From sequence record DRR723986_5691: 20,000 nucleotides of DNA. One strand, written 5' to 3'. Both the position numbers and the translations under genes were made by a program. Each line of letters begins with the position of its first letter. The first letter of the stretch is position 1. Below the pieces are notes generated by a model. It was not told the origin of the DNA. It did not search any database and saw only the letters and a program-made list of their open reading frames with translations. Below are positions 584 to 17,388 of this stretch, piece by piece.

Positions 584-1509
584 ACGATACGGCTCAGATT
601 TTCGAACAGGGCGAATACAACTTCGCCTATCTGGACGAGCAGACCAAGCGCATGATCCGCCGGGCAATCCTGAAGGGCATCGCGATACCGGGTTACCAGG
701 TGCCTTTCGCCTCGCGCGAAATGCCGATGCCCTATGGCTGGGGCACCGGCGGGGTGCAGGTCACGGCGGCAATTCTGGGCAAGGACGATTGCCTGAAGAT
801 GATCGACCAGGGCTCCGACGACACCACCAACGCGGTTTCCCTGCGCGGTTTCTTTGAAAAGACCGCCGGCGTGCGCACCACCTACGAGACATCGGAGGCA
901 AGCGTCATCCAGACCCGCCACCGGATTCCGGAAAAGGCCCTGCGCGAAGACCAGATCATCGTCTTCCAGGTGCCGATTCCCGAGCCCCTGCGCTTCCTGG
1001 AGCCACGCGAAACCGAGACCCGGAAGATGCATGCGCTCGAGGATTACGGCCTGATGCATGTGAAGCTTTACGAGGATATCGCCAAGAACGGCCATATCGC
1101 CACCACCTACGCCTATCCGGTGAAGGTCAACGACCGCTACGTGATGGATCCTTCGCCGACGCCGAAGTTCGACAACCCGAAGATCGACCAGATGGCGGCG
1201 CTTCAGCTTTACGGTGCCGGGCGTGAGAAACGCATCTACGCCATCCCGCCCTACACCAAGGTGAAGAGCCTCGACTTCGAGGACTATCCTTTCGAGGTGC
1301 AGAAGTTCGACAAGCCCTGCGGCCTGTGCGGTGCGGAGAATGTCTATCTCGACGAGGTGATCCTGGATGACAAGGGCGGGCGCATGTTCGTCTGCTCCGA
1401 CAGCGACTATTGCGAGGAACGGCGCGCGGACGGTCATCTCGGCCCGATGGCGGCGGATCCGGCGGCGCACCAGTTCGGCGCCACCCAGGCAGAGGAGACC
1501 GCCCGATGA
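580..1509 (+). CDS. phnJ: Alpha-D-ribose 1-methylphosphonate 5-phosphate C-P lyase (radical SAM) PhnJ
   Basis: YNFAYLDEQTKRMIRRAILK, REMPMPYGWGTGG, and Cys cluster CGLC-x21-CSDSDYC. Confidence 0.97.
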   Translation: MNDTAQIFEQGEYNFAYLDEQTKRMIRRAILKGIAIPGYQVPFASREMPMPYGWGTGGVQVTAAILGKDDCLKMIDQGSDDTTNAVSLRGFFEKTAGVRTTYETSEASVIQTRHRIPEKALREDQIIVFQVPIPEPLRFLEPRETETRKMHALEDYGLMHVKLYEDIAKNGHIATTYAYPVKVNDRYVMDPSPTPKFDNPKIDQMAALQLYGAGREKRIYAIPPYTKVKSLDFEDYPFEVQKFDKPCGLCGAENVYLDEVILDDKGGRMFVCSDSDYCEERRADGHLGPMAADPAAHQFGATQAEETAR

Positions 1510-2294
1510 ACGCCTTTCCGTCCGCGGACCCGCTGCTGCAGGTTCATAACGTCACCCGCTACTATGGCGACCGCATCGGCTGCGCCGATGTCTCCTTCGA
1601 TCTCTGGCCCGGCGAAGTGCTGGCCATCGTCGGCGAAAGCGGCTCCGGCAAGACCACATTGCTCAACTGCCTGTCGACACGTCTCGCCCCGACGGCGGGA
1701 GCCATCGAATACCGCATGCGTGACGGCACCATGCGCAACCTCTATCAGCTGACCGAGGCCGAGCGCCGCCTGCTGATGCGCACCGACTGGGGGTTCGTGC
1801 ACCAGAATGCTGCGGACGGGCTGCGCATGAACGTTTCCGCTGGTGCCAACGTCGGCGAAAGGCTGATGGCGGTTGGCGAGCGCCACTACGGCAACATCCG
1901 CTCCACCGCCGACGACTGGCTGGGACGGGTGGAAATCGACAGCGACCGGATCGACGACGATCCGCGCTCGTTCTCCGGCGGCATGCGCCAGCGCCTGCAG
2001 ATCGCCCGCAACCTCGTCACGAGACCACGGCTGGTCTTCATGGACGAGCCGACAGGCGGTCTGGACGTTTCCGTGCAGGCACGTCTTCTCGACCTCTTGC
2101 GCCGTCTGGTGGCCGATCTCGGACTTTCCGTGGTCATCGTCACCCACGACCTTGCGGTCGCCCGGCTGCTGTCCCACCGGATCATGGTGATGCGCCACGG
2201 CAACGTCATCGAAAGCGGCCTGACGGACCAGGTTCTCGACGATCCGCGCGAGCCCTATACCCAGCTGCTTGTTTCTTCCATTCTCCAGGTATGA
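1506..2294 (+). CDS. phnK: C-P lyase ABC-type ATPase PhnK
   Basis: Walker A GESGSGKT, RRLLMRTDWGFVHQ, FSGGMRQRLQIARNL, MDEPTGGLDVSVQARLLD; ATGA overlap with phnJ. Confidence 0.96.
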   Translation: MNAFPSADPLLQVHNVTRYYGDRIGCADVSFDLWPGEVLAIVGESGSGKTTLLNCLSTRLAPTAGAIEYRMRDGTMRNLYQLTEAERRLLMRTDWGFVHQNAADGLRMNVSAGANVGERLMAVGERHYGNIRSTADDWLGRVEIDSDRIDDDPRSFSGGMRQRLQIARNLVTRPRLVFMDEPTGGLDVSVQARLLDLLRRLVADLGLSVVIVTHDLAVARLLSHRIMVMRHGNVIESGLTDQVLDDPREPYTQLLVSSILQV

Positions 2295-2302
2295 GGACCG
2301 AA

Positions 2303-3007
2303 ATGCCCGTACGCCTCTATCTCAACAACGTCGGCAAGTCCTTCACCATGCACCTGCAGGGCGGAACCGTCATTCCCGTGGTCGAGAAGGTCGAATTCTC
2401 GGTGAATTCCGGCGAATGTGTCGTCCTTGGCGGCCCCTCCGGCGCCGGCAAGAGTTCGATCCTCAAGATGATCTACGGCAACTACCGCTGTGACGAGGGT
2501 CAGATCCTGGTGACGGTTGGCGATGAAATCGTCAACATTGCCGGGGCCGAGCCGCGCAAGGTTCTGCGCCTGCGTGAAGACACGATCGGCTATGTCAGCC
2601 AGTTCCTGCGCACCATCCCGCGTGTTTCGGCCGAAGACGTCGTCGCCGAGCCGCTTATCGCCCAGGGCACCAGCGAGGAAGAAGGCGTCGACAAGGCCCG
2701 CTCCCTGCTGTCGCGGCTGAATGTGCCCGAGCGCCTCTGGACCCTGCCGCCCGCCACGTTCTCCGGCGGCGAGCAGCAGCGCGTGAACATCGCCAGGGGG
2801 TTCATTGCCCATTATCCGATCCTGCTGCTGGATGAGCCAACGGCCTCTCTCGACGCTGCCAACCGGGCCGTGGTCGTGCGTCTGGTGGAAGAAAAGAAAA
2901 CCCAGGGCGTTGCCATGGTGGGCATTCTTCACGACCAGGACGTCCGGGAACAGATCGCCGACCGCATCATCGACGTGACCGGTTTCAGCGCGGAGGCAGC
3001 CGCCTGA
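2303..3007 (+). CDS. phnL: C-P lyase ABC-type ATPase PhnL
   Basis: KSFTMHLQGG, GPSGAGKS, YVSQFLRTIPRV, PATFSGGEQQRVNIARGF. Start placed at 2303 (SD GAGGA); ATG 2291 is an alternative. Confidence 0.95.
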   Translation: MPVRLYLNNVGKSFTMHLQGGTVIPVVEKVEFSVNSGECVVLGGPSGAGKSSILKMIYGNYRCDEGQILVTVGDEIVNIAGAEPRKVLRLREDTIGYVSQFLRTIPRVSAEDVVAEPLIAQGTSEEEGVDKARSLLSRLNVPERLWTLPPATFSGGEQQRVNIARGFIAHYPILLLDEPTASLDAANRAVVVRLVEEKKTQGVAMVGILHDQDVREQIADRIIDVTGFSAEAAA

Positions 3008-3044
3008 GCCACGAGATGAGGAAAGGCTTGCAGACGGGCGGAAA

Positions 3045-3062
3045 CTGTCACAGAAAAGTCAC
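3045..3062 (+). promoter_or_regulatory. Pho box (PhoB-binding site)
   Basis: CTGTCAC-AGAA-AAGTCAC: two 7-mers at 11-bp periodicity resembling CTGTCAT-N4-CTGTCAT, in the only large gap of a phn cluster. Confidence 0.7.
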
Positions 3063-3153
3063 CGCCCGCCTTTAGGTCACTCCCTCAGAAAGTTGAAGGA
3101 TGTGGCCCTGCCACATCCCGGCCAAACCACATTTCAAAATCGCGATTTTCTTC

Positions 3154-3903
3154 ATGCGCTACGCCCTCTATTTCGCCGCCGATGCCGACGACCGCCTGAT
3201 GCAGCTCGGAAATTCCTGGCTCGGGCGCGATCCCTTTTCCGGCACGGCCCTTCCGCAACCGGAGCTGCCCGGAATGACATCGACACGCTTCCAGGAGTTG
3301 ACGACCGACCCCCGGCGCTATGGATTTCACGGGACCTTGAAAGCCCCGTTTTCGCTTGCAGCCGATCAGACCGAGGCAGCACTGCTGGACGCCTGCGCAG
3401 CATTTGCGGCAGAAATCGCCCCTTACGAGATAGAAGCGCTCGGCGTGAACAGGCTTGGCCGTTTTCTGGCACTGACCCCTGAGGCAGAAGAGCCGGCCCT
3501 GCGCGCCTTCGCCGGCCTGTGCGTGCGTCGCTTCGAGCCGTTCCGCGCACCACTGTCAGAGGCGGATCTTGAGCGCCGCCGCAAGAGCGGACTGTCGGAA
3601 AGGCATGACACCTATCTCGTCAGGTGGGGTTATCCCTATATCTTCGATGAATTCCGCTTCCACCTGACCCTTTCCAACAAACTGGAAGACGACACCGACA
3701 TGGAGTGGATGGCAAATGCCGCCCAGGACCACTTTGCGGATGTCATCGGCAAGAAGCGGCTGTGCCGCCACGTTGCGCTCTACACCGAAGCCGAACGCGG
3801 CGCGCCTTTCCAGGTCCATACCGTCTTTCAGCTGACCGGCAGCGTCGCTCCCGCCGACGCGCTCAGCGAGGCCGAGCGTCTTTCCCAAGAGGAATCTGCA
3901 TGA
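3154..3903 (+). CDS. DUF1045 phn-associated protein, 2H-phosphoesterase-like (putative cyclic phosphodiesterase)
   Basis: MRYALYFA...WLGRD, PRRYGFHGTLKAPF, WGYPYIFDEFRFHLTLS (two HxT motifs); lies between phnL and phnM. Confidence 0.88.
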   Translation: MRYALYFAADADDRLMQLGNSWLGRDPFSGTALPQPELPGMTSTRFQELTTDPRRYGFHGTLKAPFSLAADQTEAALLDACAAFAAEIAPYEIEALGVNRLGRFLALTPEAEEPALRAFAGLCVRRFEPFRAPLSEADLERRRKSGLSERHDTYLVRWGYPYIFDEFRFHLTLSNKLEDDTDMEWMANAAQDHFADVIGKKRLCRHVALYTEAERGAPFQVHTVFQLTGSVAPADALSEAERLSQEESA

Positions 3904-5045
3904 GCAAGCATCCCAAAGTCTTCAAGAATGCCAGTCTGGTTCTCGCAGGCGAAGTGTTCGACGGTTCCCTGACGGTCGATGATGCCGGTCTGATTTCCGG
4001 CATCGGGTCACCGACCGAGGTCGACGGACATGATTGCGAAGGCGACTACCTGCTGCCAGGCCTGGTCGAACTGCACACCGACCACCTGGAAACCCACTAT
4101 GCGCCACGTCCCAAGGTGCGCTGGAGCCCGGTTTCCGCCGTGCAGGCCCACGACGCCCAGATCGCGTGTTCAGGCATCACCACCGTGTTCGATGCGCTGC
4201 GCGTCGGTATGGATGAAGACGCGGACCTTGGTTATTCGGATATGCGCGCGCTTGCGGATGCCATTGAAACCGGCCAGCGGGAAAACCGTCTGCGTGCCGA
4301 CCATTTCATCCACCTGCGCTGCGAGGTATCCGCACCCGACGTGCTCAGCGCCTTCAAGGTGTTCGAGGACGACGACAGCATCCGCCTGATCTCGCTGATG
4401 GATCACACCCCCGGTCAGCGCCAGTTCGTGTCGATGGATGCCTACAAGATCTATTATCAGGGCAAGAAGGGCTTCACCGACGCCCAGATGGACGACTTCA
4501 TCCGCAAGCGCCAGGCGCGGGCCAGCAGCCTCGCCCCTGAAAACCGCAAGCACCTGTCGGCCATCGCCCAATCGCGCGGCATTGCCATCGCCAGCCACGA
4601 CGACGCCACTACCACCCATGTGGAAGAGGCGATTTCACTGCAGACGAAAATCGCCGAGTTTCCAACCACGCTGGAAGCCGCCAAGGCATCTCACGAAGCC
4701 GGTATGGCCGTTTTGATGGGGGCGCCGAACGTCGTGCGCGGCGGATCACATTCCGGCAATATCTCGGCGAAGGCGCTTGCCGAAGCGGGCGTTCTGGATG
4801 TGCTCTCCTCGGACTATGTGCCGATTTCGCTGCTGCAGGCTGCGTTCCAGCTGGCAGCAGAGGTCGAGGCGATTGCCCTGCCACAGGCAGTCGCCATGGT
4901 CACGGCAACGCCAGCGAAGGCCATTGGCCTGCAAGACCGCGGCACCCTGGAACCCGGCCTCAGGGCCGATCTCATTCAGGTGAAAATGGTTGGTGACATC
5001 CCGATCGTGCGCGGTGTCTGGCGCGAGGGCAAACGGGTTGCCTGA
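3900..5045 (+). CDS. phnM: Alpha-D-ribose 1-methylphosphonate 5-triphosphate diphosphatase PhnM
   Basis: PGLVELHTDHLE, HLRCEVS, SLMDHTPGQRQF, ASHDD, GAPNVVRGGSHSGN, LSSDYVP; ATGA overlap with DUF1045. Confidence 0.96.
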   Translation: MSKHPKVFKNASLVLAGEVFDGSLTVDDAGLISGIGSPTEVDGHDCEGDYLLPGLVELHTDHLETHYAPRPKVRWSPVSAVQAHDAQIACSGITTVFDALRVGMDEDADLGYSDMRALADAIETGQRENRLRADHFIHLRCEVSAPDVLSAFKVFEDDDSIRLISLMDHTPGQRQFVSMDAYKIYYQGKKGFTDAQMDDFIRKRQARASSLAPENRKHLSAIAQSRGIAIASHDDATTTHVEEAISLQTKIAEFPTTLEAAKASHEAGMAVLMGAPNVVRGGSHSGNISAKALAEAGVLDVLSSDYVPISLLQAAFQLAAEVEAIALPQAVAMVTATPAKAIGLQDRGTLEPGLRADLIQVKMVGDIPIVRGVWREGKRVA

Positions 5046-5058
5046 GGCTGGCTCCGAC

Positions 5059-5616
5059 ATGACAGAAAAACTCGGCCCCGGCCGCATGGTGCTCGTAGTC
5101 GGCCCGAGCGGGGCCGGCAAGGACACATTGATGGCCGCGCTCAAGGCCCGTCTGGCGGGCCGGACGGACGTCAGCTTCGCCCGGCGAGCGATCACCCGGC
5201 AGGCCGATGTCGAGGCTGAGGATCACGACACGCTTTCGCGCGCCGAATTCGATCAGCTGAGAGCGGCCGGAAAGGTTGCCCTGTGCTGGGAGGCCCACGG
5301 GCTCGGCTACGTCATCCCGCAAAGCTACGACCAGGCAATCGAAGCAGGCGCAACCGTGATTGCCAATGGCTCGCGCAAGGTCTTGAAGCACGCAGAGGAC
5401 AAGTACCACAACGCCAGCGTTCTGCTGATCACCGCGCCGGTCGAAGTCCTCGCCGAACGCCTTGCCGCACGTGGCCGCGAAAGCAGACAGGAGATAGAGG
5501 AACGGCTGCGCCGTGCCGACCTTGAACCGGAAAACGTCGCCAATCTGATCCGCATTGAAAACACCGGCACGGTGGAGGATGCGGTCGACAGGATGGTCGC
5601 CGCACTCGGCCTTTGA
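5059..5616 (+). CDS. phnN: Ribose 1,5-bisphosphokinase PhnN
   Basis: VVGPSGAGKDTL, RRAITR, WEAHGLGY, NGSR, LAERLAARGRES..IEERL.RA. Confidence 0.94.
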   Translation: MTEKLGPGRMVLVVGPSGAGKDTLMAALKARLAGRTDVSFARRAITRQADVEAEDHDTLSRAEFDQLRAAGKVALCWEAHGLGYVIPQSYDQAIEAGATVIANGSRKVLKHAEDKYHNASVLLITAPVEVLAERLAARGRESRQEIEERLRRADLEPENVANLIRIENTGTVEDAVDRMVAALGL

Positions 5617-6205: not shown

Positions 6206-6745
6206 TCAACTGGCGCCCGCAGCGATCGCTTGATTGATTTTCAAACCCGCATTCACGGCGTGATAGATCGGGAAAGGTGTGCGTTGTGACAGGTCGATGT
6301 CCCGCCTCAACCACTCCTGCTCTTCCAGAACACCAAGGGACTTCGACAGTGCCCGGTCCGTAACTGGCCCGAGGTCCGACTTGATCGCCGAAAACCGGCT
6401 TGGCGCCCCGGTTACGGCCAGGATAGGCACCGTCCAGCTGCGTCGCAGTACCGAAAAGGCATCCTCGTTCGGAACGATCTCCTCGATCCGGCTCGCCATG
6501 GTAGCAACAGCCTTGCCTTTGTCCGTCAGCCGAAACTCGGGCCGCAGGGGATGGCCGTGGCCGGGGTTCCGCTCCAGCAGTCCAAGCTGGAACAGATGTT
6601 CAAGGCTTGCTGCAAAAGAGCTGCGACTCGCCCCTGTCGCCGCGATCAGCGGGGCTTGCCGACCGGAAACACCTGCATGCAACTGAGCCAGAATTTTCAG
6701 CGACCAGGCTTTGGATGTGAGGTTGACAAGAAGCTGCATATTCAT
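6206..6745 (-). CDS. Transcriptional regulator with two tandem HxlR-like winged-helix domains
   Basis: Two repeats of the HxlR pattern: KAWSLKIL...LEHLFQLGLLER...EFRLTDKG and RSWTVPIL...RFSAIKSDLGPVTDRALSKSLGVLEEQEWLRR...PIY. Confidence 0.82.
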   Translation of the reverse strand: MNMQLLVNLTSKAWSLKILAQLHAGVSGRQAPLIAATGASRSSFAASLEHLFQLGLLERNPGHGHPLRPEFRLTDKGKAVATMASRIEEIVPNEDAFSVLRRSWTVPILAVTGAPSRFSAIKSDLGPVTDRALSKSLGVLEEQEWLRRDIDLSQRTPFPIYHAVNAGLKINQAIAAGAS

Positions 6746-6749
6746 ATTT

Positions 6750-6762
6750 TATAGCTACTATA
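6750..6762. promoter_or_regulatory. Candidate operator palindrome in divergent promoter
   Basis: TATAG-CTA-CTATA in the 40-bp AT-rich gap between the regulator and the VOC gene. Confidence 0.35.
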
Positions 6763-6785
6763 CTTTTGATACATAGGAAAGTCTC

Positions 6786-7157
6786 ATGTCTGTCGTTTCT
6801 CTGGATAATACGATCACTCTCGCCCTCTCCGTTCGCGACAGGCATGCAAGTGCCGACTGGTACGCGGAAAAGCTCGGATTCGAGTTGCTCTATCATATGG
6901 ACGACGCTGGCTGGAGCGAGCTGGCAACCCGGACCGAAGGCGTGACCCTGGGACTGGGCGAACAGTCTGAACCAACGCCCGGAAACACGGTTCCCGTCTT
7001 CGGCGTGGCCGATATCGCAGGTGCCCGCAGTGCGCTGGAAGGGGCCGGTGTCAAATTCGACGGAGCGACGGAGACCATCGAAGGCATGGTCAGCACCGCA
7101 ACCTTCTACGATCCCGATGGCAACGCGCTCATGCTTGCTCAGGACCTGTCCAAATAG
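6786..7157 (+). CDS. VOC family (glyoxalase/bleomycin-resistance-like) protein
   Basis: LSVRDRHASADWYAEKLGF...VFGVADIAGARSALEGAGVKF...FYDPDGNALML; SD AGGA upstream. Confidence 0.9.
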   Translation: MSVVSLDNTITLALSVRDRHASADWYAEKLGFELLYHMDDAGWSELATRTEGVTLGLGEQSEPTPGNTVPVFGVADIAGARSALEGAGVKFDGATETIEGMVSTATFYDPDGNALMLAQDLSK

Positions 7158-7220: not shown

Positions 7221-7420
7221 ACTGTCTGCAGAGGGTTTTCGCAAACATCCAAGGCACGAATTTACGATCTGACAGGCAGCACGCGACAGAAATACGTCAT
7301 ACTTCCCAGAGGAAGTTGACGAATGAGGCAAAGGAATAGTCGACACAAAATCTTTGCATTGCCAGAATAGTCGACTACTCTCTTATTCTTGATCTCATTC
7401 TGAAAATCGAGTTCTGCGGC

Positions 7421-7789
7421 ATGCCTGCGACATTGTTTGAAAAGTACGGCGGCTTCGGGTCGGTGAGCCGCATCGTAATGACCTTTTACGACAAGGTTCT
7501 CGATTCCGAAGAGATCGGTGACTTTTTCGACGACGTCGACATGACCCGCCTGATCGATCATCAGACCAAGTTTATCTCCTACCTGTTGGGCGGGCCGGTC
7601 AGCTACTCGGAAGAGCGGCTGAGGCGAACCCATGCCACCCTTAACCTGAAAAACGAGGACTTTGACGAAGTTGCACGTCTCCTGCGCGAGACGCTGGTGG
7701 AACACAAGTTCGACCCTGCAGACATCAAGTCCGTGATGTCGGCAATCGAAGCGCGACGTTCCGCAATTCTTTCAACCGGTGCGACATGA
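7421..7789 (+). CDS. Group I truncated haemoglobin (2/2 globin, GlbN-like)
   Basis: TLFEKYGG (A-B Gly-Gly), FY (B9-B10 Tyr23), FF (CD1 Phe36), HQ (E10/E11), LLGGP (E-F Gly-Gly), proximal His71 in LRRTH. Confidence 0.92.
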   Translation: MPATLFEKYGGFGSVSRIVMTFYDKVLDSEEIGDFFDDVDMTRLIDHQTKFISYLLGGPVSYSEERLRRTHATLNLKNEDFDEVARLLRETLVEHKFDPADIKSVMSAIEARRSAILSTGAT

Positions 7790-8838
7790 GCATTACCGCC
7801 ATCAACCAGCAGCTCTTGCGCGCGATCGGGGTCGGCATTGCCGTCGTCAACAGCAAGGACCTCCAGTTCCTGTTCCAGAACGCTCCGTTTTCCGATTGGT
7901 TCGGCAAGCCGGAAGCCGTCACCACGCTTGCCGATCTGCTGCCGGATATCGACATCGAACAGCTTCGTGAAGCAATCAAAGAGCAGGGACGCTTTTCCGG
8001 AGAAGTCTCCGTCAAGCTCAAGCGCCGGACCCTGGTCATCGCCCTGACCGTTTCGCCAGCTGAAGAACAGGACTTCCTCGTCGTTGAATGCCAGAACATC
8101 ACGCGGATCCGCGAACTGGAGTCGATGATCGACAGTTACTCCTCCATGGTAGAGCGGAATACGCGCGAACTGGAACGCGAGAAGGAACGTGTCGAGCGTT
8201 TGCTGCTCAACCTGATGCCGCGTTCGGTCTACGAGGAGTTCAAGACCTTCGGTGTCGTCACGCCGCAGCTTTACGAGAGCGTTTCCGTGGTCATGCTCGA
8301 CTTCGTGGACTTCACGAAATTCTCCGCAGAGCACGACCCGACGGTGACGCTTGGTGAACTGAACGACATCTTTACCGCATTCGACCGTATCGCCGAGCAA
8401 TTCGGTTGTGAGCGCATAAAGACCATCGGCGATGCCTATCTTGCCGTTTCAGGCATGCCCGAGCCCTCACCGGATCACATGCGCGCTGTTGCCAACTGCG
8501 CCGTGCGCTTCATTCGCTACCTGGAGCGTCGGAACCAGAGCCATCAACACAAGTGGCGGGCGCGTGTCGGACTGGGTACGGGATCGGCAGTCGGTTCCGT
8601 CGTCGGAATCCAGAAGTACGTTTATGACGTCTTCGGCTCGGCAGTGAACCTTGCCGCACGGTTGCAGGAATTCGCCAATCCCATGTGCGTCGTTGCGCCG
8701 GATGCCATGAAGGAATTCCTGGTGGACGAGTTTCATCTGGAAGACCTTGGCAAACGCGAGATCCGCAGCTTTGGAGAAATGCGGCTGATGCGGGTCAGCC
8801 CCGGTGTCGAACTGGCCCATCGGGCGCGGCAGTTCTGA
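7786..8838 (+). CDS. PAS-like / coiled-coil / class III adenylate cyclase
   Basis: N-terminal PAS-like region (GVGIAVVN...FQNAPF...QNITRIR), coiled coil ending LLLNLMP, catalytic motifs MLDFVDFT, IKTIGDAY, YDVFGSAVNLAARL; no transmembrane segment; ATGA overlap with the globin. Confidence 0.92.
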   Translation: MSITAINQQLLRAIGVGIAVVNSKDLQFLFQNAPFSDWFGKPEAVTTLADLLPDIDIEQLREAIKEQGRFSGEVSVKLKRRTLVIALTVSPAEEQDFLVVECQNITRIRELESMIDSYSSMVERNTRELEREKERVERLLLNLMPRSVYEEFKTFGVVTPQLYESVSVVMLDFVDFTKFSAEHDPTVTLGELNDIFTAFDRIAEQFGCERIKTIGDAYLAVSGMPEPSPDHMRAVANCAVRFIRYLERRNQSHQHKWRARVGLGTGSAVGSVVGIQKYVYDVFGSAVNLAARLQEFANPMCVVAPDAMKEFLVDEFHLEDLGKREIRSFGEMRLMRVSPGVELAHRARQF

Positions 8839-8952: not shown

Positions 8953-11865
8953 TCAGTTCTTGTTTTTCTTCTTGTTCCCGAAAACGTTGCCCAAAAGGCC
9001 GGAAGGCAGACCGAAACCTTCTTCTACCGCTTTCAGAACTTCCTCGTCATCGACCTCGCCGTCCAGAACCTTCTGAACGTCGATCTGGGTCTTGCCGCCG
9101 GTCGCCTGGTTGATGACCTTGTTGGCCTGGTCAACCAGCTCCTGGGACGGTTCCTTCTTTCCCTGAAGAATGGAGATCAGCTCACCGCCGGTCTGCTGCA
9201 GTTGCTTGTAGGCTGCCTCCGGGTTTTCCAGAATACCCTTGATGTCCGGATAGATCCGCGGATCGTTCCACGGACCTTCGATCACGATGGGCACACCTAG
9301 GCCGGCCAGCTTCTTGTCTTCGCCCTTCCGCCGAGGCTGCGGGGCCTGACCTTCCAGCGTCGGCACGATCTTCGGCTCCACACGCCAGGAAAGCCGTTGC
9401 GCCGGCATGTCCGTCGTGCCCTTGCCGGTCATGCGAACCAGCGGCCCGATCAGCGACAGATCGTCGGTCTTGGCAATGCCGTTCTGGATCTGGAACGTTG
9501 AGCCGAGCGAGCTGAAATCGGTCTTGGCCGACGGATTGGCCTGCCATCCGAGCAACGTCTCCACCGACAGGCCACGCACTATCTGCGGCACGTTGATGCC
9601 CTTGATCGCGCCGTCGGCGAACGTGTAGTTGGCTGTCCCGTTCAGGGCCTGCACCAATGCCTGTTCGCTGCCGCCTTTGGAGGTAACATCCAGGTTTATG
9701 TTGGCCTTGCCTTCGATCCAGCTGAAATCGGCTGCATCACGCAGCAACGGATAGGCATTGAGGTTGGCGAGAGCAAATTTCGCGGCAACTTGAGGTGTTG
9801 CGGACGCCCCGTTGAGCGTAACCGTACCGGTGCCGGAGCCGCCGTAAAGTGCCAGCTTTTCCAGGTTCGCAGTCAGCACACCGTTCTTGATGGTGGTCGA
9901 CAGGGCGCTCTGGTCGATCTTGATCTTGTCCCAGCGGATTTCGCTGGTGGTCAGCTTGAAGTCCGCGTCGATCGCATTGAGACCGGAGAAATCTATCGGC
10001 GCTGTACTCCAGCCGCCTGCCCCACCGCGCTTGCCGCCGCCAGCCGAGGAATTTCCGGACGCCTGGCCAGAACCGCCACCACCGCCGCTGCCTGCGCCCG
10101 AAGACGATGCGCCGCCGAGATAGGGGTCGAGCACAAGTTCCCGCAGATCCAACCGCGCCGTAACGCTTGGCTTGCCACCGAGGACGATCCGTCCGTTGGC
10201 TTCACCCGACGTATCATCCAGCGTGAACCGTGTTTCCTCGAATGAAATCGTCTCGCCTGCAACGCCGAAGATGCCTGAAGCCTTGAAGCGCTTCAGACCG
10301 CCACCGCTGCCAAGCGGTTTGCCGAGCCACGCCATGAGCCCGCGCAGGTCGGCAGTATCGACGCTGACCGCACCATCAAGCGCACCGTCGCGCGAAGCCC
10401 GACCATTGAAGCCGGCGCTCACACGATTGCCTTTCACGCTCACGGAAACCGGCGCAGCTCCCCCCGCCAGCAAGCGAGCGGTGTCGCCTTCGCCGGTCAG
10501 GCTGAACGCTTCGCCGCGCCAGGACAAGGCACCGCTGAGCGAAATTGGGTTTTCCAGTCCCTGCAGATCGATATCCATGGCAAGGTTCGTCAGGCGGTCC
10601 GCTTCCGGATCGCCGCCGACCGCCGAAGCAAGCCCAAGTCCGCCAATCTCGCCCTCGGCGATACGTACGGACCCCGTGATATCAAGACCGGCAAGCAGTT
10701 CCTCCCCTGTCTGCCCCACGGTTGCAAAAGCGAGGTCGAGGCTGAGTTTGCCGCTTGCAGGCAAATCCCTGCCCGCCAGCTGCAGGAGATCGGCAATCGA
10801 ACCGTCTTTCAGCACCAGCCGGCCGGAGACTTCAGGAACGCTCCCCGACAGATCCGCGTCCGCCGCACCGCCAAGAGACAGTTGGCCAAGCGTGATGTCG
10901 AGATCAGCCAGCGACAGCATGGCCTCGGTGCCTGCAACCTTGGCCGACACGGCAAAAGCACCCGGATCGGCGGCAAGGTCCTGCCCGGCCAGCGCTGCAA
11001 GCGCTTTCAGGGAAGGACCGGCTGCAGAAAGGGCCAATTCGGCGCGCATCGGATCCAGGCCGGATTGACCGGTGACGGAGACGCTGTTTTCACCGCTGGA
11101 AATTTTCAGGTCTACCGGAACCTGCTCCCCGCCCATGAGAGCGAGCGGGTTGGTCAGGGATCCTGCGACGGCGACCGGCATTTCGCGGAACGTGAAGCTG
11201 GATGTCAGATCCACCTCACCCGACAGGCTGGGCGCCTGCAGGCTGAGATCAAGGTTGGAGATACGAACCGGCTCGGCAGCATCCGGCGCCTTGTAGGTCA
11301 CCGTGCCACCGGTGATCTGCAGGCTGTCGACACCAATGCTCTTGAGATAGCCCTCGGGAGCTGCGGCTGTTTCTGCCGGCTCTGCTTCAGACGCAGGCGC
11401 AGGCGTGGCTTCCGCCAACGCATCGGTTTCGGCGTCGCCGGTTTCAGCCTCGATCAAGTCGCCAATGTCGCTGATGTCGCGGCGGGGCTCCCAGCTCGTG
11501 GTGCCGTTCGGGCCGATTTCCAGATAGATGTCCGGCTTGTCCAGGGCAATTCCGGTCACCTGGATATTGCCGGAAACCAGACCACCCCAGGCGAGCCCAA
11601 ATTCGACACGCTCGGCCTTGGCAAACTCGATTCCGTCGGCACCGGCCTCGCCGGCAAGGCCGATATCTTCCGCGACCAGCGAAAATCCGGGAAACAGCGA
11701 CAAGGACACAGGTCCGTCCAGGCGCACGCGCCAGCCAAAGCGCTTGTCCACCTGCTCAACTACCTGACGCTTGATTTCGTCCTTGGGCAGGAACAGCGGC
11801 ACCACCAGAATGATGGTTACCAGCATGAACAGCAGACTGCCCAGTCCGATCAAAAGCCGACGCAT
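8953..11865 (-). CDS. AsmA-family protein, 970 aa
   Basis: N-terminal membrane anchor, then AsmA_N pattern (G..V.LDGPVSLSLFP...LDKPDIYL), beta-rich body, AsmA C-terminal pattern (LYGGSGTG, DGAIKGIN, KTDFSSL...IQNGIAKTDDL...GKGTTD, VPIVIEGPWNDPRIYPD); SD GGAG. Confidence 0.9.
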   Translation of the reverse strand: MRRLLIGLGSLLFMLVTIILVVPLFLPKDEIKRQVVEQVDKRFGWRVRLDGPVSLSLFPGFSLVAEDIGLAGEAGADGIEFAKAERVEFGLAWGGLVSGNIQVTGIALDKPDIYLEIGPNGTTSWEPRRDISDIGDLIEAETGDAETDALAEATPAPASEAEPAETAAAPEGYLKSIGVDSLQITGGTVTYKAPDAAEPVRISNLDLSLQAPSLSGEVDLTSSFTFREMPVAVAGSLTNPLALMGGEQVPVDLKISSGENSVSVTGQSGLDPMRAELALSAAGPSLKALAALAGQDLAADPGAFAVSAKVAGTEAMLSLADLDITLGQLSLGGAADADLSGSVPEVSGRLVLKDGSIADLLQLAGRDLPASGKLSLDLAFATVGQTGEELLAGLDITGSVRIAEGEIGGLGLASAVGGDPEADRLTNLAMDIDLQGLENPISLSGALSWRGEAFSLTGEGDTARLLAGGAAPVSVSVKGNRVSAGFNGRASRDGALDGAVSVDTADLRGLMAWLGKPLGSGGGLKRFKASGIFGVAGETISFEETRFTLDDTSGEANGRIVLGGKPSVTARLDLRELVLDPYLGGASSSGAGSGGGGGSGQASGNSSAGGGKRGGAGGWSTAPIDFSGLNAIDADFKLTTSEIRWDKIKIDQSALSTTIKNGVLTANLEKLALYGGSGTGTVTLNGASATPQVAAKFALANLNAYPLLRDAADFSWIEGKANINLDVTSKGGSEQALVQALNGTANYTFADGAIKGINVPQIVRGLSVETLLGWQANPSAKTDFSSLGSTFQIQNGIAKTDDLSLIGPLVRMTGKGTTDMPAQRLSWRVEPKIVPTLEGQAPQPRRKGEDKKLAGLGVPIVIEGPWNDPRIYPDIKGILENPEAAYKQLQQTGGELISILQGKKEPSQELVDQANKVINQATGGKTQIDVQKVLDGEVDDEEVLKAVEEGFGLPSGLLGNVFGNKKKNKN

Positions 11866-12148: not shown

Positions 12149-13300
12149 TCAGGACAGGGCAAACATGTGATTGTCCCAGGAAATGCCCGGTGGGCGAGCC
12201 AGAATTTCCGCCGGTTGGGCAGGATCCTCGACAAGAGACAATGCCCCGTTGCCGTCAGATATCAGAAAGCTGCCCTGATCGATCGGCGCAACGCCGCATC
12301 CGTCGGCAATGGCCTCGGCACCCAGAAATGCGCCGGTATCGGCCTTCCAGAACAACGTCTGCCCGCCCCTTGGAGCGGACGTTGCAATCACCTCACCGCT
12401 TGCGTTTGCGGTCACCGAGCCGATGTAGTTCTGAAGGCCTGACGCGATACCTGTCGGAATTTCCGTCAAGATGGGTGCCTCGTCCCGCGAAAACACGCCA
12501 ACCAGAGGCGGCAGGTCTGTTTCCGGCCCCTCGAACTGACCGCCGACCCACGCCCGCCCTTGTCCGTCCAGCGCCATATGCCGGAGCGACAGCTGGTGCA
12601 GGGAAGCGTCCAGAGCGTGGCTGGCATGAAGATCACCGGTTTCGCGATCCAGGAACACCACGGTCGGCGCCATGGTGTCGAGATTAAGCTTTTCCCGCCC
12701 CTTGTCCGGATGGGTCATGATGCCGCCATTGGCAACGACAAGCGTGCGCCCGTCCGGCGCGAGCAGCAAGTCATGCGGACCGATGCCATGGGTCTCGATC
12801 TCGCCGATCCGCTGAACCTGACGGCCACTCATGTCGTAAACACCAATCACGCCACGGGCTACGGCATAGTCGTTTTCGACCGCATAGAGCAGTCTGCCAT
12901 CAGCGGAAAAACAGCCATGTCCATAGTAATGGCGGCCAGGTTCCGCCGTGAGAACCTCCGGCTCCACATCCTGATATGGCCGAACCACGACAGCGAAAGT
13001 GCCGGGCCGGCGGGCGAAGGCTACAAACCTGGACTTGTCGGGAGAAACCGCGACGCCGTGGCCCCGTCCCGGCAGACCGATCCTGGCCAGAACCTGTCCA
13101 AGGTCGTCGACAACACCGACTCCATAATCGCCGTTTTCAAGCTTGTAGGCGCTCACGAACAGTGGCACGCCGTCGGAAGCTTCCCGGTTCAGAAGGCTTG
13201 CCGCCAGCGTCGAGCCGGAAAATGCCGGCAAGGCGGCAAGGCCGCCGAGTGCTGCCAGAAAACCACGCCGGGAAAGGGGCTTAGTCACCATCGAGCGCAT
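12149..13300 (-). CDS. DUF1513 protein (Tat-exported beta-propeller)
   Basis: Tat motif SRRGFL; RGHG, FARRPG, RHYYGHGCFS.DG, GIGPHDL, ANGGIMTHP, LSLRHM, YIGSV, WDNH; SD GGAGG before ATG 13300. Confidence 0.9.
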   Translation of the reverse strand: MRSMVTKPLSRRGFLAALGGLAALPAFSGSTLAASLLNREASDGVPLFVSAYKLENGDYGVGVVDDLGQVLARIGLPGRGHGVAVSPDKSRFVAFARRPGTFAVVVRPYQDVEPEVLTAEPGRHYYGHGCFSADGRLLYAVENDYAVARGVIGVYDMSGRQVQRIGEIETHGIGPHDLLLAPDGRTLVVANGGIMTHPDKGREKLNLDTMAPTVVFLDRETGDLHASHALDASLHQLSLRHMALDGQGRAWVGGQFEGPETDLPPLVGVFSRDEAPILTEIPTGIASGLQNYIGSVTANASGEVIATSAPRGGQTLFWKADTGAFLGAEAIADGCGVAPIDQGSFLISDGNGALSLVEDPAQPAEILARPPGISWDNHMFALS

Positions 13301-14360
13301 TAAAACCTCCAGCAAGTTCCAGGGCACCTGCAAGTTCAAGGGCAATCGTGTCGCGAAGCGATTTCAGCGTGATCGCCAGGACAACCATCTTGTCGTAGGC
13401 ATCGCCTTCTTCGAAGGACTGGCGCAAGGGCGGATCCAGGGTCCCCAAAAGAGTGACAGCATTGCCAAACTCGAAGTCGAGCGTGTCGTAAATCCAGGTG
13501 AAATCGTCCGGCGTCAGGTCTTTCAGGTCGAGGGAAGCAATGGCCTTCTGAATGCCGAGCAGCTCGCCGTTGAGATAGACCACGCTGTTGCCGGAGCGCG
13601 AGAACGGAAAGCGCGTCGCCCTGGCCTTGTCCTTGCCGGTTCCCAATGCCGGAAGCACATCCTGATCCCACGCGATGATCAGCCCCGTGACCAGCGCGTT
13701 GAACACGCTTTCCAGCGCTTCCTTCGACGTATGGAACCGCTCGTTGCCGCCTTCAGCTGTCAAGAGCACCTCGCTGTATCCGTCGGGATCCTGCCAGCCG
13801 GCAGCGATTTCGCTGGCCATGGCCGCAAGGTTTTCCGAAATTGCCAGTGCATAGCCGCAGCTAAAGTCCTTGCCGTCGTCCGCCTGCCCAAGCCGAACCG
13901 CATTGTCCTTGTCGAAAGCGAGCAATTCCAGTGCTGTCAGTCCCTGAACCGCGACGCTCTTGTCCTTGAGCGTCGCCGCAGACAACGCGTCCTTGTCTTC
14001 AGAAGCGAGAAGTTTGCGGATCTGGCGTTGCGTGATGCCACGCGGGTCAGGCAGGAAAGCCAGCCGACTGAGGCGATCGTTGTCGATCAACGGGCCAAAT
14101 CGCAAGAAATGCACATGGGAGAATTCCCGCACAGTGTCTGAAAAGGCCGTCCTGAACCCCTCGACCGATGCTTCGTCCGCATTTGCGCAGACCGCTCGAA
14201 CAGCGTCCGGCAGATTTGCAGAGGTTTCGGCAAACGCACCGGTTGCCGGTTGGATATAGGCCTCGATCAGATTGTCGAGTTTCGGCTCGTAGTCCGTGGC
14301 GAACGCGGGCTGGGCGATAACGGCTCCGGAAACGAGAGCGGCAAATAGCAAACAGCGCAT
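13281..14360 (-). CDS. Imelysin-family (peptidase M75-like) periplasmic protein
   Basis: Signal peptide (..PAFA), RFGPL...FLPDPRG, SVAVQGLTALE, C-terminal GFNALDGD; TGATG coupling to the upstream gene. Confidence 0.88.
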   Translation of the reverse strand: MRCLLFAALVSGAVIAQPAFATDYEPKLDNLIEAYIQPATGAFAETSANLPDAVRAVCANADEASVEGFRTAFSDTVREFSHVHFLRFGPLIDNDRLSRLAFLPDPRGITQRQIRKLLASEDKDALSAATLKDKSVAVQGLTALELLAFDKDNAVRLGQADDGKDFSCGYALAISENLAAMASEIAAGWQDPDGYSEVLLTAEGGNERFHTSKEALESVFNALVTGLIIAWDQDVLPALGTGKDKARATRFPFSRSGNSVVYLNGELLGIQKAIASLDLKDLTPDDFTWIYDTLDFEFGNAVTLLGTLDPPLRQSFEEGDAYDKMVVLAITLKSLRDTIALELAGALELAGGFNALDGD

Positions 14361-15889
14361 CAAAGGGACTCCAGAAAACGTATAAGCGATTGTCGGTCGG
14401 CGGGCGGAAGCGCAACCACAGCGTCGCGCGCCTGTCGGGCTTCGCCGTCGTGCCACAGGACCGCTTCCAGCAGATTGCGTGCGCGGCCGTCGTGCAGGAA
14501 CCGGGTGTGATTGTTGACAGTCTCGGTCAGGCCGATGCCCCATAGCGGCGGCGTACGCCACTCCTGTCCACTGGCGTCACCCACCGGGCGATTGTCGGCA
14601 AGGGCTTCGCCCATGTCATGTAACAGGAAATCCGAATAAGGCCAGATCAACTGAAACCTGTGCGCCGGATTTTCCGCCTTTCGACTGGTCACGAATTTCG
14701 GTTGGTGGCAGGCCGGACAGCCCGACTGGTAGAAAACCTGCTTGCCTTTCAGCACCTCGGGATCATCCACGTCGCGGCGCATCGGCACCGCCAGGTTTTC
14801 CGAATAGAAAGTGACGAGATCCATGACCGGGTCCGGAGCTTCCGAGACACCAAGGTTTGCCTGTTCGCCATGAGGCAAGGCGCGGCAAGCTGTCTGCGCC
14901 TTGGTGCAGTCGCCGTAATTATCCGGCATCTCGGGTGTCGAAATGCCGATATCACCGGCAAACGCTGCTGCGGACTGGGCACGGATCGAGGGTTTGGAAG
15001 CCTTCCAGCCGAAACGGCCAAGCGTTAACGCACCCGTCGCAGGGTCACGAACCCGGCTGACCTTGCCGGAAATTCCATCACTGTCGATGTCGTCGGGGTC
15101 CGCAAGCGCTTCAATGTCGCCGGGATGAATGGCCTGCACCAGACCGAGGCCGATCATGGGCGGGGCCGCGCGGGCCGAAATCATGGTGTCGGGGTGCATG
15201 TCGCCATATCCAAGATCCCGGATCCTGTAGACGGGCTTCTGCAACACAGCCTTTTCCCCACCGGCCAGCGGAACCTCGATCTCCTCCACCTCGATATCGA
15301 AGCGTCCTTCACCGGGCAGGCCCGGCACCGCAAAGGTCTGGAACTGACCGCCGTAGGTCGGCTCCGGCACCAGCAGGATATCCTTGTCGGCAAGTGCCTG
15401 ACGCTGCGCCTCGGACTGAGGCGGGATGGACAGGCGAAGGAACATGGAAACCGCGTCTTCACCCGCCCGCGGCGGTCGGCCCCGGCCATCCTTCAAGTGA
15501 CACCCCTGGCAGGAGCGCGCGTTGTAGAGCGGTCCCAGGCCATCCGATGCCTGTGTCGACGAGGGAGAAGACGCCCAGAGCTTCTTGAACAGCCCGTTGC
15601 CTACCTTGAAGGTGGCCTGTTCTTCGAAGGTCAGATTGGCATTGGAGTGGGAATAGGCATCCCGGTTGATCCGCTTTCGGGACGTACCGGCCCCGCCCTG
15701 CATGATTTCGAATGCTTCAGCGGCTTCGAAATCGGCCGGCGGCTGCAGAACCTTCGCGGCCTTGATCCTGTCCTTGGCCGAAAGATCATCCCGGTGAGAC
15801 AGCGCATCATCTGAAAGAGCGGTTCCTGCCGCCAGGCAGAAACACAAAAAGACGCCCGTCATGGCGCCCGGTCTGGGGACCAGTCTCAT
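14360..15889 (-). CDS. Di-haem cytochrome c / di-haem oxidoreductase (DHOR, DUF1111) protein
   Basis: Two CxxCH motifs (SCQGCH, GCPACH), DGLGPLYNARSC, GRFGWKA, LLHDMG, EWRTPPLWGIG, FLHDGRARNL.EAVLWH; signal peptide. Confidence 0.92.
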   Translation of the reverse strand: MRLVPRPGAMTGVFLCFCLAAGTALSDDALSHRDDLSAKDRIKAAKVLQPPADFEAAEAFEIMQGGAGTSRKRINRDAYSHSNANLTFEEQATFKVGNGLFKKLWASSPSSTQASDGLGPLYNARSCQGCHLKDGRGRPPRAGEDAVSMFLRLSIPPQSEAQRQALADKDILLVPEPTYGGQFQTFAVPGLPGEGRFDIEVEEIEVPLAGGEKAVLQKPVYRIRDLGYGDMHPDTMISARAAPPMIGLGLVQAIHPGDIEALADPDDIDSDGISGKVSRVRDPATGALTLGRFGWKASKPSIRAQSAAAFAGDIGISTPEMPDNYGDCTKAQTACRALPHGEQANLGVSEAPDPVMDLVTFYSENLAVPMRRDVDDPEVLKGKQVFYQSGCPACHQPKFVTSRKAENPAHRFQLIWPYSDFLLHDMGEALADNRPVGDASGQEWRTPPLWGIGLTETVNNHTRFLHDGRARNLLEAVLWHDGEARQARDAVVALPPADRQSLIRFLESL

Positions 15890-15935
15890 ATTCGCATCCT
15901 GACTGTAATCCGCGAGCCCCAATTCGCGGACAAGC

Positions 15936-15961
15936 CGTCAGGCGGCCGATGCCGCCTGACG
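15936..15961 (-). terminator. Intercistronic stem-loop after the IrpA-like gene
   Basis: CGTCAGGCGGC-CGAT-GCCGCCTGACG 11-bp stem 10 nt past the stop; second stem TCCGCGA/TCGCGGA at 15909-15930. Confidence 0.5.
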
Positions 15962-15971
15962 ATCTATTCGA

Positions 15972-17234: not shown

Positions 17235-17347
17235 TGATCCATCCCGTAATATGTGTCGCCCGCAGTGCGCGTGGACCGTCTCTGGGCGAAACCTGAGTGA
17301 TTTTGTGGCGCGGAAACACGCGCCGCAGGGAGAGGGAAACCATTTCA

Positions 17348-17362
17348 TGAGGCAGGAAGTCA
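17348..17362. promoter_or_regulatory. IRO / Iron-Rhodo-box-like site (TGA-N9-TCA)
   Basis: TGA-GGCAGGAAG-TCA overlapping a minus-strand TTGACT -35-like hexamer upstream of the iron operon; short motif, so chance is possible. Confidence 0.45.
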
Positions 17363-17388
17363 AGTTATAATTCCAAAAAAATCAATAG

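Follow-up and report, generated by a model that had tools for sequence, protein, structure and literature searches.

A conserved overlapping gene pair of a truncated haemoglobin and a PAS-domain adenylate cyclase suggests a two-protein gas or redox sensor

The genes of a truncated haemoglobin and of a PAS-domain adenylate cyclase are kept together in approximately 160 marine and sediment bacterial loci, which is far beyond chance. The conserved and overlapping arrangement of both genes suggests a two-protein gas or redox sensor, and we lean towards the globin being a trans-acting haem sensor for the cyclase. The pair was analyzed in a window of 20,000 nucleotides (sequence record DRR723986_5691), i.e. 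the whole stretch of DNA under study. Its gene anatomy, its domain folds, the intact catalytic and haem-pocket residues and the strict conservation as a unit are established.

Gene organization

The pair and its domains are located in the window as follows.

7421-7789, plus strand: globin open reading frame, 122 amino acids, group I truncated haemoglobin (trHbN)
7786-8838, plus strand: cyclase open reading frame, 350 amino acids, predicted soluble PAS / signalling-helix / class III adenylate cyclase
7786-7789, plus strand: ATGA overlap, cyclase start codon over globin stop codon
7786-8097, plus strand: N-terminal PAS domain (cyclase residues 1-104), divergent, PAS topology in the AlphaFold model
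8101-8250, plus strand: signalling helix (residues 106-143) and short pre-catalytic helix (146-155), from the AlphaFold model and conservation
8260-8781, plus strand: predicted class III (IIIa-like) adenylate cyclase catalytic domain, from PF00211 and structure matches

An earlier note on this DNA had described a two-gene unit with an ATGA overlap, and both reading frames and the overlap are found exactly there. The sharing of the globin stop codon and the cyclase start codon suggests translational coupling of the two genes.

Conservation of the gene pair

The earlier note had proposed to look for conserved pairs or fusions of the two genes. In our neighbourhood survey the pairing proved to be strongly conserved, while fusions were not found; globin and cyclase are encoded by separate genes in 159 of 159 pairs. 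In the genus sample each locus with a full-length relative (8/8, 56-100% identity) has the globin gene immediately upstream, and these include a paralogous globin–cyclase pair which is 57% identical and has different flanking genes. Each of the 80 named genome loci (80/80; Roseibium/Stappia, Ruegeria, Leisingera and others), which were taken from at least 556 matching genome loci, shows the globin at the same offset. It is also upstream in all four strong matches (4/4) of a phylum sample of 401 genomes, and in 75 of 80 metagenome loci. Four of the five metagenome exceptions have less than 200 nt of upstream DNA, and the fifth (L181) has a cupin gene at the globin's place. A start/stop overlap of 4 nt occurs in 112 of the 159 pairs, the rest showing small gaps or overlaps.

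For comparison, other class III cyclases of the genus sample, which resemble the cyclase in the catalytic domain only (28-37% identity), have a globin at 0 of 12 loci, and weak generic-PAS matches of the phylum sample at 0 of 17 loci. Both the pairing counts (8/8, 80/80, 4/4 and 75/80) and these controls (0/12 and 0/17) speak for a signalling reading.

The nearest genome (G001) has a single Bac_globin match, which is this globin. In two other genomes of the genus each strong Bac_globin match adjoins a cyclase of the same PAS-cyclase family, and one extra weak match (E 1.3e-4) in these two genomes is not located beside such a cyclase. A conserved third gene was not found, as any flanking gene family occurs in at most 9 of 46 representative loci. 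A reading of the locus as a defence system or mobile element was rejected, since the locus has neither an effector gene nor a conserved neighbour.

The globin and its haem pocket

The assignment of the globin to the group I 2/2 type, already made in the earlier note, is upheld by a Pfam match to PF01152 (Bac_globin, E 4.9e-17, 62.7 bits with a cut-off of 21) and by group 1 truncated haemoglobins as its closest solved relatives: Tetrahymena 3aq5 (1.2e-16), Synechocystis cyanoglobin (3.5e-14) and M. tuberculosis HbN (6.9e-10). The top 24 PDB matches are of the group I or cyanoglobin type, group II HbO occurs only at E 5e-5, and a Protoglobin family match stays below its cut-off (19 vs 25 bits).

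Alignments to 3aq5, to its Y25F/Q46E/Q50E mutants and to cyanoglobin 2hz2 place TyrB10 at Y23, LeuE7 at L44, HisE10 at H47, GlnE11 at Q48 and HisF8 at H71. No variation is seen at G10, G11, Y23, F36, H47, Q48, G58, P59, H71 and D101 across 47 globin sequences (47/47), and Y23, H47, Q48 and H71 among these mark a haem pocket under selection. D101 and a C-terminal R-x-x-x-I-V belong to the conserved surface positions of the globin. The hallmarks of trHbN, i.e. HisF8, TyrB10, a polar residue at E11 and the Gly-Gly motifs G10-G11 and G57-G58, are present and invariant or nearly so in the same set. The haem-pocket residue set is intact, and the globin is predicted to bind haem.

The GlbN proteins of Synechocystis and Synechococcus belong to the same group and share the B10 Tyr, the E11 Gln and an aligned E10 His, the counterpart of H47 in Synechocystis cyanoglobin being the His within AHQKAF. 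They differ in being stand-alone proteins, and H47 is a candidate iron ligand in the present globin; to our knowledge cyanobacterial GlbN proteins do not pair with a cyclase. According to PMC7082302 the group I globins of Synechocystis and Synechococcus are hexacoordinate, and PMC4720485 names residue E10, if it is His or Lys, as a potential sixth haem ligand; in Synechocystis GlbN the sixth ligand does occupy E10. The globin studied here may, judged by its residues, be hexacoordinate as well.

The pocket is at the same time an argument for a different role, in which the globin is an enzyme or buffer (NO dioxygenase, peroxidase or O2 scavenger) that is merely co-expressed with the cyclase for one stress response and neither contacts nor regulates it. 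The distal pocket of TyrB10, LeuE7 and GlnE11 matches the one in M. tuberculosis HbN, and trHbN proteins with TyrB10/GlnE11 such as this HbN are NO dioxygenases. The NO-detoxification role of M. tuberculosis HbN is cited in PMC4256840; PMC4319818 reports peroxidase activity for a Roseobacter truncated haemoglobin, but this protein is of the glbO type and has a different gene context. Co-expression alone is not expected to keep approximately 160 pairs adjacent, mostly with a 4-nt overlap, despite variable flanks and a duplicated pair. It also leaves unexplained that the globin follows one PAS-cyclase family and not other cyclases, and a conserved reductase partner was not found beside the globin in the representative loci. 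Overall we regard an enzyme or buffer without influence on the cyclase as unlikely.

The adenylate cyclase domain

The catalytic domain is recognized by Pfam as PF00211 (residues 159-332, E 4.3e-39, 134 bits), and its best sequence matches are AC9, AC8, AC5 and the soluble domain of M. intracellulare Cya (5o5k). All catalytic residues reside in one chain: the metal-binding D172 (MLDFVDF) and D216 (IKTIGDAY), the substrate-binding K212 (in the latter motif) and D281 (YDVFG), and the transition-state residues N288 and R292 (VNLAAR). These six residues align to C1/C2 of AC9 and do not vary among the 47 aligned family members (47/47), so that the metal Asp, the ATP-specifying Lys and Asp and the Asn/Arg pair listed in the earlier note are all confirmed. 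Because the full residue set is present in one chain the cyclase is predicted to be an adenylate cyclase of the homodimer type and not an alpha/beta heterodimer, and because all six residues are invariant an active enzyme is favored on sequence grounds. The caveat raised earlier that the usual KGKG motif reads RSFG is correct as to the letters but minor: the family consensus is I-K-G-F-G, most relatives have KGFG, and G330 is nearly invariant.

The closest catalytic domains are those of mycobacterial Rv1625c/Cya and of mammalian membrane adenylate cyclases (class IIIa); 5o5k and 5o5l show 34-35% identity to the cyclase with a TM score of 0.84-0.88 on the target (5o5l 0.84). Common to them is a conserved helix just before the catalytic domain. 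In contrast, these enzymes are anchored in the membrane by six-helix domains, whereas the cyclase of the pair is soluble and has a PAS sensor.

The catalytic residues also bear on a reading in which the flow of information is reversed or signalling is absent, i.e. the cyclase or cAMP controls the globin, or a silent cyclase domain serves as a scaffold. A silent domain is at odds with six residues being invariant in 47/47, and a reversed flow with the globin having no nucleotide-binding domain in the Pfam search. Moreover, in proteins of the PAS / helix / cyclase type control normally runs from the N-terminal sensor to the C-terminal enzyme, as established for soluble guanylate cyclase (sGC) and class III cyclases. 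Such a reading is very improbable.

The PAS domain and the signalling helix

Pfam, the AlphaFold model and the ATP-type residues agree with the architecture of PAS domain, long helix and class III adenylate cyclase that had been proposed before from the DNA letters. In the AlphaFold model the PAS domain (pLDDT 92) consists of an N-cap helix, five strands and three short helices. If searched alone its best fold matches are dimeric short-LOV/YtvA/NifL PAS domains (E 6e-6 to 1e-4) and not specifically the PAS domain of sGC. A search of 1.84 billion representatives gave 161 clusters at E <= 1e-3, in which the PAS domain is always N-terminal and starts within about the first 50 residues. Proteins with the same PAS domain that are not cyclases exist, namely histidine kinase, PP2C and CheA-like members. 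The strong matches in the phylum and Rhodobacteraceae samples are cyclase-length frames only, and a metagenome scan with an N-terminal-domain alignment of the non-cyclase members returned 80 loci that are all of the cyclase type where the C-terminal part is on the contig.

The PAS domain of this cyclase contains an invariant residue N32, no His and a single Cys (C102). The Cys position of LOV domains is occupied by Ala (A33) and is variable in other members. In the alignment of the wider family a conserved His, Met or Cys ligand was not found. The PAS domain is therefore regarded as having no obvious cofactor of its own, because His is absent, the one Cys is not conserved and the LOV Cys position is A33.

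An alternative would be that the PAS domain senses its own small ligand and that the globin only shapes the signal locally, for example because it uses up NO or O2 or serves the PAS domain as redox partner or haem donor. PAS domains commonly bind ligands of their own, and flavin-binding LOV and NifL PAS domains are the closest folds; within the cyclase clade E101 is conserved and position 102 is Cys in the majority. Yet position 102 carries A, I, G or F instead of Cys in members of the wider family, a His or Met ligand is not conserved, and the LOV Cys position is Ala. The PAS domain furthermore is the fastest-evolving of the four parts that were compared (mean pairwise distance 1.55 vs 0.85 for the globin), a pace not usually seen in a tight cofactor pocket. 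A PAS domain with its own ligand and a globin of only local effect thus seems distinctly improbable.

Of the four parts the signalling helix has diverged least (mean pairwise distance 0.42), and together with the short pre-catalytic helix it makes up the most conserved stretch of the family (ITRIRELESMIDSYS...ERLLLNLMPRSVYEE). Residues 95-150 of the cyclase give a weak HNOBA match in Pfam, which with 20.4 bits stays below the cut-off of 23.4 and covers only the last 55 profile positions; among members of the wider family 10 of 51 match HNOBA at E <= 1e-3.

Comparison with known systems

Over its whole chain the cyclase model can be superposed on the alpha and beta chains of human and Manduca sGC, from the PAS domain through the coiled coil to the cyclase domain (Foldseek; 8hbf, 7d9r, 8hbh, 6jt0 and 9p2r; 355-391 aligned columns, E about 1e-18 to 1e-19), and both systems combine a haem protein with a PAS domain that lacks a cofactor. 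The haem module of sGC is an H-NOX domain, whereas here it is a 2/2 globin on a separate polypeptide, and an H-NOX match is absent from both proteins in the Pfam search. Furthermore, sGC is an alpha/beta heterodimer, while the present cyclase carries a full residue set in one chain, with the Lys/Asp pair typical of adenylate cyclases. Of the likeness to sGC claimed in the earlier note, the order of PAS domain, coiled coil and cyclase holds; the PAS domain alone is closer to short-LOV/YtvA folds, the HNOBA match is below the cut-off and H-NOX is missing.

Stand-alone bacterial H-NOX proteins are trans-acting haem NO sensors that are encoded beside histidine kinases or diguanylate cyclases. Like them, the pair has the gene of a small haem protein immediately beside that of a signalling enzyme, without fusion; it differs in the truncated globin fold and in the PAS-adenylate cyclase as partner. 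Globin-coupled sensors are described in the review PMC7475203 as S-family 3/3 globins fused to an MCP, kinase, GGDEF or adenylate cyclase, e.g. HemAT. The coupling of a globin to a signalling output is common to both systems, adenylate cyclase being among the outputs listed there. In contrast to these single chains with an N-terminal 3/3 globin, the group I 2/2 globin has its own gene here and a PAS domain stands between globin and enzyme. In the literature searched we found no description of a truncated haemoglobin paired with a PAS-cyclase, which is in line with the earlier remark that no characterised example was known.

Proposed mechanism

Both genes together could form a self-contained sensor-effector operon, in which translational coupling would let the truncated haemoglobin be made in step with the cyclase. 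We infer a contact between the two proteins, with regulation from globin to cyclase and a haem-borne signal. The globin would be an in-trans haem receptor for O2, NO or CO, or for the redox state of its haem, and the cyclase a homodimeric soluble adenylate cyclase whose cofactor-less PAS domain and signalling helix would take up the globin's state and thereby determine how fast cAMP is made. By analogy, this logic would be that of the haem domain of animal sGC acting via PAS domain and coiled coil, and that of a stand-alone bacterial H-NOX protein controlling a neighbouring kinase or diguanylate cyclase. As a plausible switch, the binding ligand would push the invariant distal His-E10 (H47) off the haem iron and thereby move the E helix.

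Three further analyses relate to the contact between globin and cyclase. A natural globin–PAS fusion was not found in searches for longer globin relatives and among PAS representatives, so that there is no Rosetta-stone support. The only longer globin relative (P0121, 272 amino acids) was rejected as a fusion, as the globin is confined to its C-terminal part and the first approximately 150 residues look like an over-extended open reading frame call. The distances of globin and cyclase co-vary (r 0.64-0.75), which fits an inheritance as a unit. The partial correlation with the globin distances is 0.31 for the PAS domain and 0.43 for the catalytic domain, and since it is no stronger for the PAS domain the correlation is taken as a sign of co-inheritance, not of contact. 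A complex prediction for cyclase residues 1-160 with haem and globin, in which alignments were not used, gave a score of 0.01, the mark being 0.34, and weighs neither in favor of binding nor against it.

As a more specific and tentative proposal, which we hold to be possible though rather doubtful, the divergent PAS domain could be a dedicated receiver for a truncated haemoglobin. This would make up a modular two-protein haem-sensing system of a globin in trans, a receiver PAS domain and an output, with ligand displacement of the distal His-E10 as the switch; the outputs would mostly be adenylate cyclases, and also histidine kinases, PP2C phosphatases and CheA-like kinases. If the PAS domain is such a receiver, a group I truncated haemoglobin would for the first time have a role in signalling, and bacteria would possess a counterpart of sGC with a different haem fold.

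NO detoxification or O2 handling is the enzymatic function usually ascribed to group I truncated haemoglobins, whose physiological roles are unsettled in most bacteria. Their pairing with a PAS-adenylate cyclase in many marine Alphaproteobacteria (Roseibium, Ruegeria, Leisingera and others), which live on algae, corals and sediments, would give them a part in signalling and would couple cAMP to O2, NO or redox state. The pair would also provide a simple soluble two-protein model in which a haem signal can be followed from the PAS domain along the signalling helix into a class III cyclase, which is the route of human sGC.

Transcription and upstream region

RNA-library contigs cover the globin–cyclase locus with 95-99% likeness. 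In three runs these contigs are 10-85 kb long, and a contig that spans two genes does not equal a single transcript; the same applies to a 2.1 kb contig of a fourth run that bridges the globin–cyclase junction. A tentative site was noted upstream of the globin gene.

7340-7368, plus strand: promoter-like site 5' of the globin gene (weak evidence), in a block partly conserved among Roseibium/Stappia orthologues

One sigma-70-like match (9/12) precedes the globin gene, shuffled controls giving 0.6 on average, so that the match is not significant alone. Nine aligned upstream regions share the partly conserved block CAAAA.CTTTGCATTG..AG..AGTCG.CTACTCT at approximately 50-95 nt 5' of the globin ATG.

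Conservation of the gene pair

The globin and cyclase genes form a real and strongly conserved two-gene unit. As the earlier note had described, both open reading frames lie on one strand of the window, and the ATG of the cyclase overlaps the TGA of the globin in an ATGA at 7786-7789:

7421-7789, + strand: globin, 122 amino acids
7786-8838, + strand: cyclase, 350 amino acids

We surveyed gene neighbourhoods, as the note had proposed, and found the two genes adjacent at nearly all loci of this cyclase family. Full-length relatives of the cyclase occur in 8 of 25 genomes of the window's genus (Roseibium/Labrenzia/Stappia, judging by its nearest genome and by named relatives), comprising orthologues at 82-100% identity and a paralogue group at 57%. 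A globin is located directly upstream in 8/8 fetched full-length loci of the genus, and none is found at 12 other fetched loci, which match the catalytic domain only (28-37% identity). The paralogous pair in L008 keeps the ATGA overlap in another gene context, with a methyltransferase on its upstream side and a LysR regulator on its downstream side. Globin and cyclase genes are thus moved or retained together.

A scan of species-representative genomes gave at least 556 loci with relatives. In the best 80 of these, which were examined, a globin ends at the cyclase start in every case (80/80), and the loci stem from Roseibium, Stappia, Limibaculum, Ruegeria, Leisingera, Sedimentitalea, Pseudodonghicola, Albibacillus, Cribrihabitans, Tropicibacter and Falsiruegeria. 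Comparison of Roseibium with Ruegeria gives 68-72% identity for the cyclase and 48-58% for the globin. Another 80, more divergent loci came from metagenomes; they are 33-49% identical to P0183, which served as the first query sequence, in its N-terminal domain. An upstream globin is present in 75 of them, and four of the five without it have only 35-199 nt upstream on the contig. The overlap measures 4 nt in 112 of 159 definable pairs, the others showing small gaps or overlaps, and a fusion of globin and cyclase was found in none of the 159. No flanking family is common to more than nine of 46 representative loci.

The N-terminal domain of the cyclase was also followed by itself. Its profile strongly matched 4 of 401 genomes in a phylum-wide sample, all Alphaproteobacteria and all with the globin (4/4); the 17 weak matches are PAS domains within large proteins and lack a globin. 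In a Rhodobacteraceae sample with about one genome per genus the domain is patchily distributed (34/401 genomes), always in frames of about 330-460 amino acids.

Some metagenome loci deviate individually. The fifth globin-less locus, L181, carries a cupin-like gene (382-843, + strand) in the globin position ahead of a cyclase at about 820-1850, and its product may be a swapped sensor partner. In L146, on a 2.56 Mb contig, two tandem globin matches (E 3.5e-42 and 1e-40) run in the direction of the cyclase at 2465-3544, and their ends lie 29 and 490 nt upstream of where the PAS domain starts; this looks like a duplicated globin ahead of one cyclase. Two loci, L124 and L194, contain frameshifts or N's within the cyclase.

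The globin and its haem pocket

The globin matches the Pfam family Bac_globin (PF01152, E 4.9e-17), and its assignment to group I of the truncated haemoglobins (trHbs) holds, as every one of its nearest solved relatives is a group 1 trHb: Tetrahymena 3aq5 (1.2e-16), Synechocystis cyanoglobin (3.5e-14) and M. tuberculosis HbN (6.9e-10), compared to only about 5e-5 for group II HbO. The nearest genome has no Bac_globin match besides the globin of the pair. In two further genomes of the genus every strong match adjoins a cyclase of the window's family, and one extra weak match (E 1.3e-4) is located elsewhere.

Pocket residues were assigned from an ungapped alignment with 3aq5 and with the deposited mutants Y25F, Q46E and Q50E of that protein, giving TyrB10 = Y23, LeuE7 = L44, HisE10 = H47, GlnE11 = Q48 and HisF8 = H71. 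Across 47 representative sequences G10, G11, Y23, F36, H47, Q48, G58, P59, H71 and D101 are invariant, and L44 and the motif D-H-Q-T-K-F nearly so. H47 is aligned with His46 of Synechocystis cyanoglobin, which stands in the motif A-H-Q-K-A-F and serves this bis-histidyl protein as distal axial ligand. According to PMC4720485, His or Lys at E10 in trHbs gives potential six-coordinate forms and calls for care; PMC7082302 describes hexacoordinate group I globins of Synechocystis and Synechococcus, whose tunnels open only when liganded, and the use of LysE10 by Chlamydomonas THB1. From the cyanoglobin alignment and this literature, ligand-driven release of H47 would be a reasonable candidate switch.

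The cyclase and its N-terminal domain

The class III cyclase domain covers residues 159-332 (PF00211, E 4.3e-39). Alignment to the C1 and C2 domains of AC9 shows that a single chain supplies all the catalytic residues that the note had read from the sequence: D172 and D216 as metal Asp, K212 and D281 as the ATP-type Lys/Asp, and N288 and R292 as the Asn/Arg pair. These six residues are invariant in 47 paired cyclase sequences. In the AlphaFold model of the full cyclase (mean pLDDT 84), an N-cap helix with a PAS fold of five strands (1-104) is followed by a long helix of 38 residues (106-143), a short one (146-155) and the catalytic domain, in line with the claimed PAS-helix-cyclase order. Pfam adds a weak, sub-threshold match of the end of the HNOBA profile to residues 95-150.

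The resemblance to soluble guanylate cyclase (sGC) stands for the whole chain and is not specific in the PAS domain taken alone. Over 355-391 columns (E about 1e-18 to 1e-19) the full-length model can be aligned to alpha and beta chains of sGC, from the PAS domain through the coiled coil to the cyclase, and a mycobacterial Cya aligns to it through its soluble domain (5o5l, 34% identity). For the model of PAS plus helix alone (pLDDT 92) the nearest folds are dimeric short-LOV proteins, YtvA, a YF1-type LOV-kinase and NifL PAS1 (E 6e-6 to 3e-5, TM 0.6-0.7, 15-19% identity). By its modelled fold it is thus a PAS domain of standard dimeric type with an N-cap and a J-alpha-like helix, and not specifically an sGC PAS.

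Within the cyclase, variation is greatest in the PAS domain, with a mean distance of 1.55; the globin is at 0.85 and the catalytic domain at 0.54, and the helix with the segment preceding the catalytic domain is the most conserved part (0.42). N32 is the sole invariant residue of the PAS domain, which in the window contains no His, and its only Cys, C102, is kept in the cyclase clade and replaced in wider relatives.

Residues 1-160 have relatives in only 161 clusters at E <= 1e-3 (HMMER, 1.84 billion representative proteins), and the match to the N-terminal domain always sits at the protein N-terminus. A Pfam scan of 51 longer sequences with this domain, the window's own protein included, found cyclase (28), HATPase_c (12, 8 of them with HisKA), SpoIIE/PP2C (7) and CheA-like Hpt (3) domains. 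The non-cyclase carriers are rare metagenome singletons, one named as stemming from a Sericytochromatia MAG. Eight related proteins (P0124, P0183, P0186, P0208, P0220, P0223, P0241, P0259) combine the same PAS and MLDSYS-type helix with histidine kinase, GAF-kinase, PP2C (SpoIIE) phosphatase or CheA-like Hpt-HATPase outputs; in P0124 GAF and kinase domains follow an N-terminal domain 65% identical to that of the window.

Potential mechanism

Of the readings weighed, a split haem sensor is the one best supported, and we consider the chances somewhat better than even that the pair is one. The globin would be made stoichiometrically with the cyclase, bind haem and, on contact, report O2, NO, CO or redox state to the cofactor-less PAS domain, which would set cyclase activity via the signalling helix. 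Globin distances correlate with those of the cyclase parts at r 0.64-0.75, and the partial r is 0.31 with the PAS and 0.43 with the catalytic domain; this shows co-inheritance only. RNA-library contigs span the locus, and contigs of this kind cannot prove a single transcript. The main rival, a purely enzymatic globin of the NO dioxygenase type merely co-expressed with the cyclase, appears unlikely to us, as it fits poorly with a strict, family-specific and translationally coupled pairing.

As a split haem sensor the pair would be a new version of the haem-sensor-plus-cyclase theme, with a predicted and directly testable mechanism. Our full-text searches returned no paper describing a trHbN (group I)-adenylate cyclase pair; in silico mentions are possible in Hade et al. 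2017 (IUBMB Life), which reportedly treats multidomain truncated haemoglobins, or in supplements. Globin-coupled sensors are 3/3 S-family chimeras according to PMC7475203, which lists chimeric T globins of bacteria for T2/O and T3/P, whereas the globin of the window is a separate group I protein. A Roseobacter glbO is described by PMC4319818 in a nitrogen-metabolism context without a cyclase. PMC4256840 concerns a Legionella trHbN with a cyclase as reporter, and passages of PMC8717448 and PMC1592074 do not describe the pair.

Genomic surroundings

Around the pair the window contains:

580-5616, + strand: segment of a C-P lyase phosphonate operon (PhnJ, two ABC-type ATPases (PhnK/PhnL-like), DUF1045, PhnM-like amidohydrolase, PhnN-like P-loop kinase-like protein)
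6206-7157, divergent: HxlR-type regulator (− strand) and glyoxalase/VOC-family protein (+ strand), just upstream of the globin
8930-8914, − strand: terminator-like hairpin
8953-11865, − strand: AsmA-family protein, 970 amino acids, converging on the cyclase 3' end
12149-17363, − strand: DUF1513, imelysin (Peptidase_M75), di-haem oxidoreductase (DHOR) and second imelysin

The last cluster looks like an iron-uptake type. The C-P lyase segment has no link to the pair in other genomes, and the HxlR and glyoxalase/VOC genes are not kept beside it in distant loci. Upstream of the globin ATG, AATAGTCGAC occurs twice within 7335-7377, the copies being 30 nt apart and the second falling in a stretch that Roseibium/Stappia orthologues share in part; the sequence may act as a regulator site or belong to the promoter.
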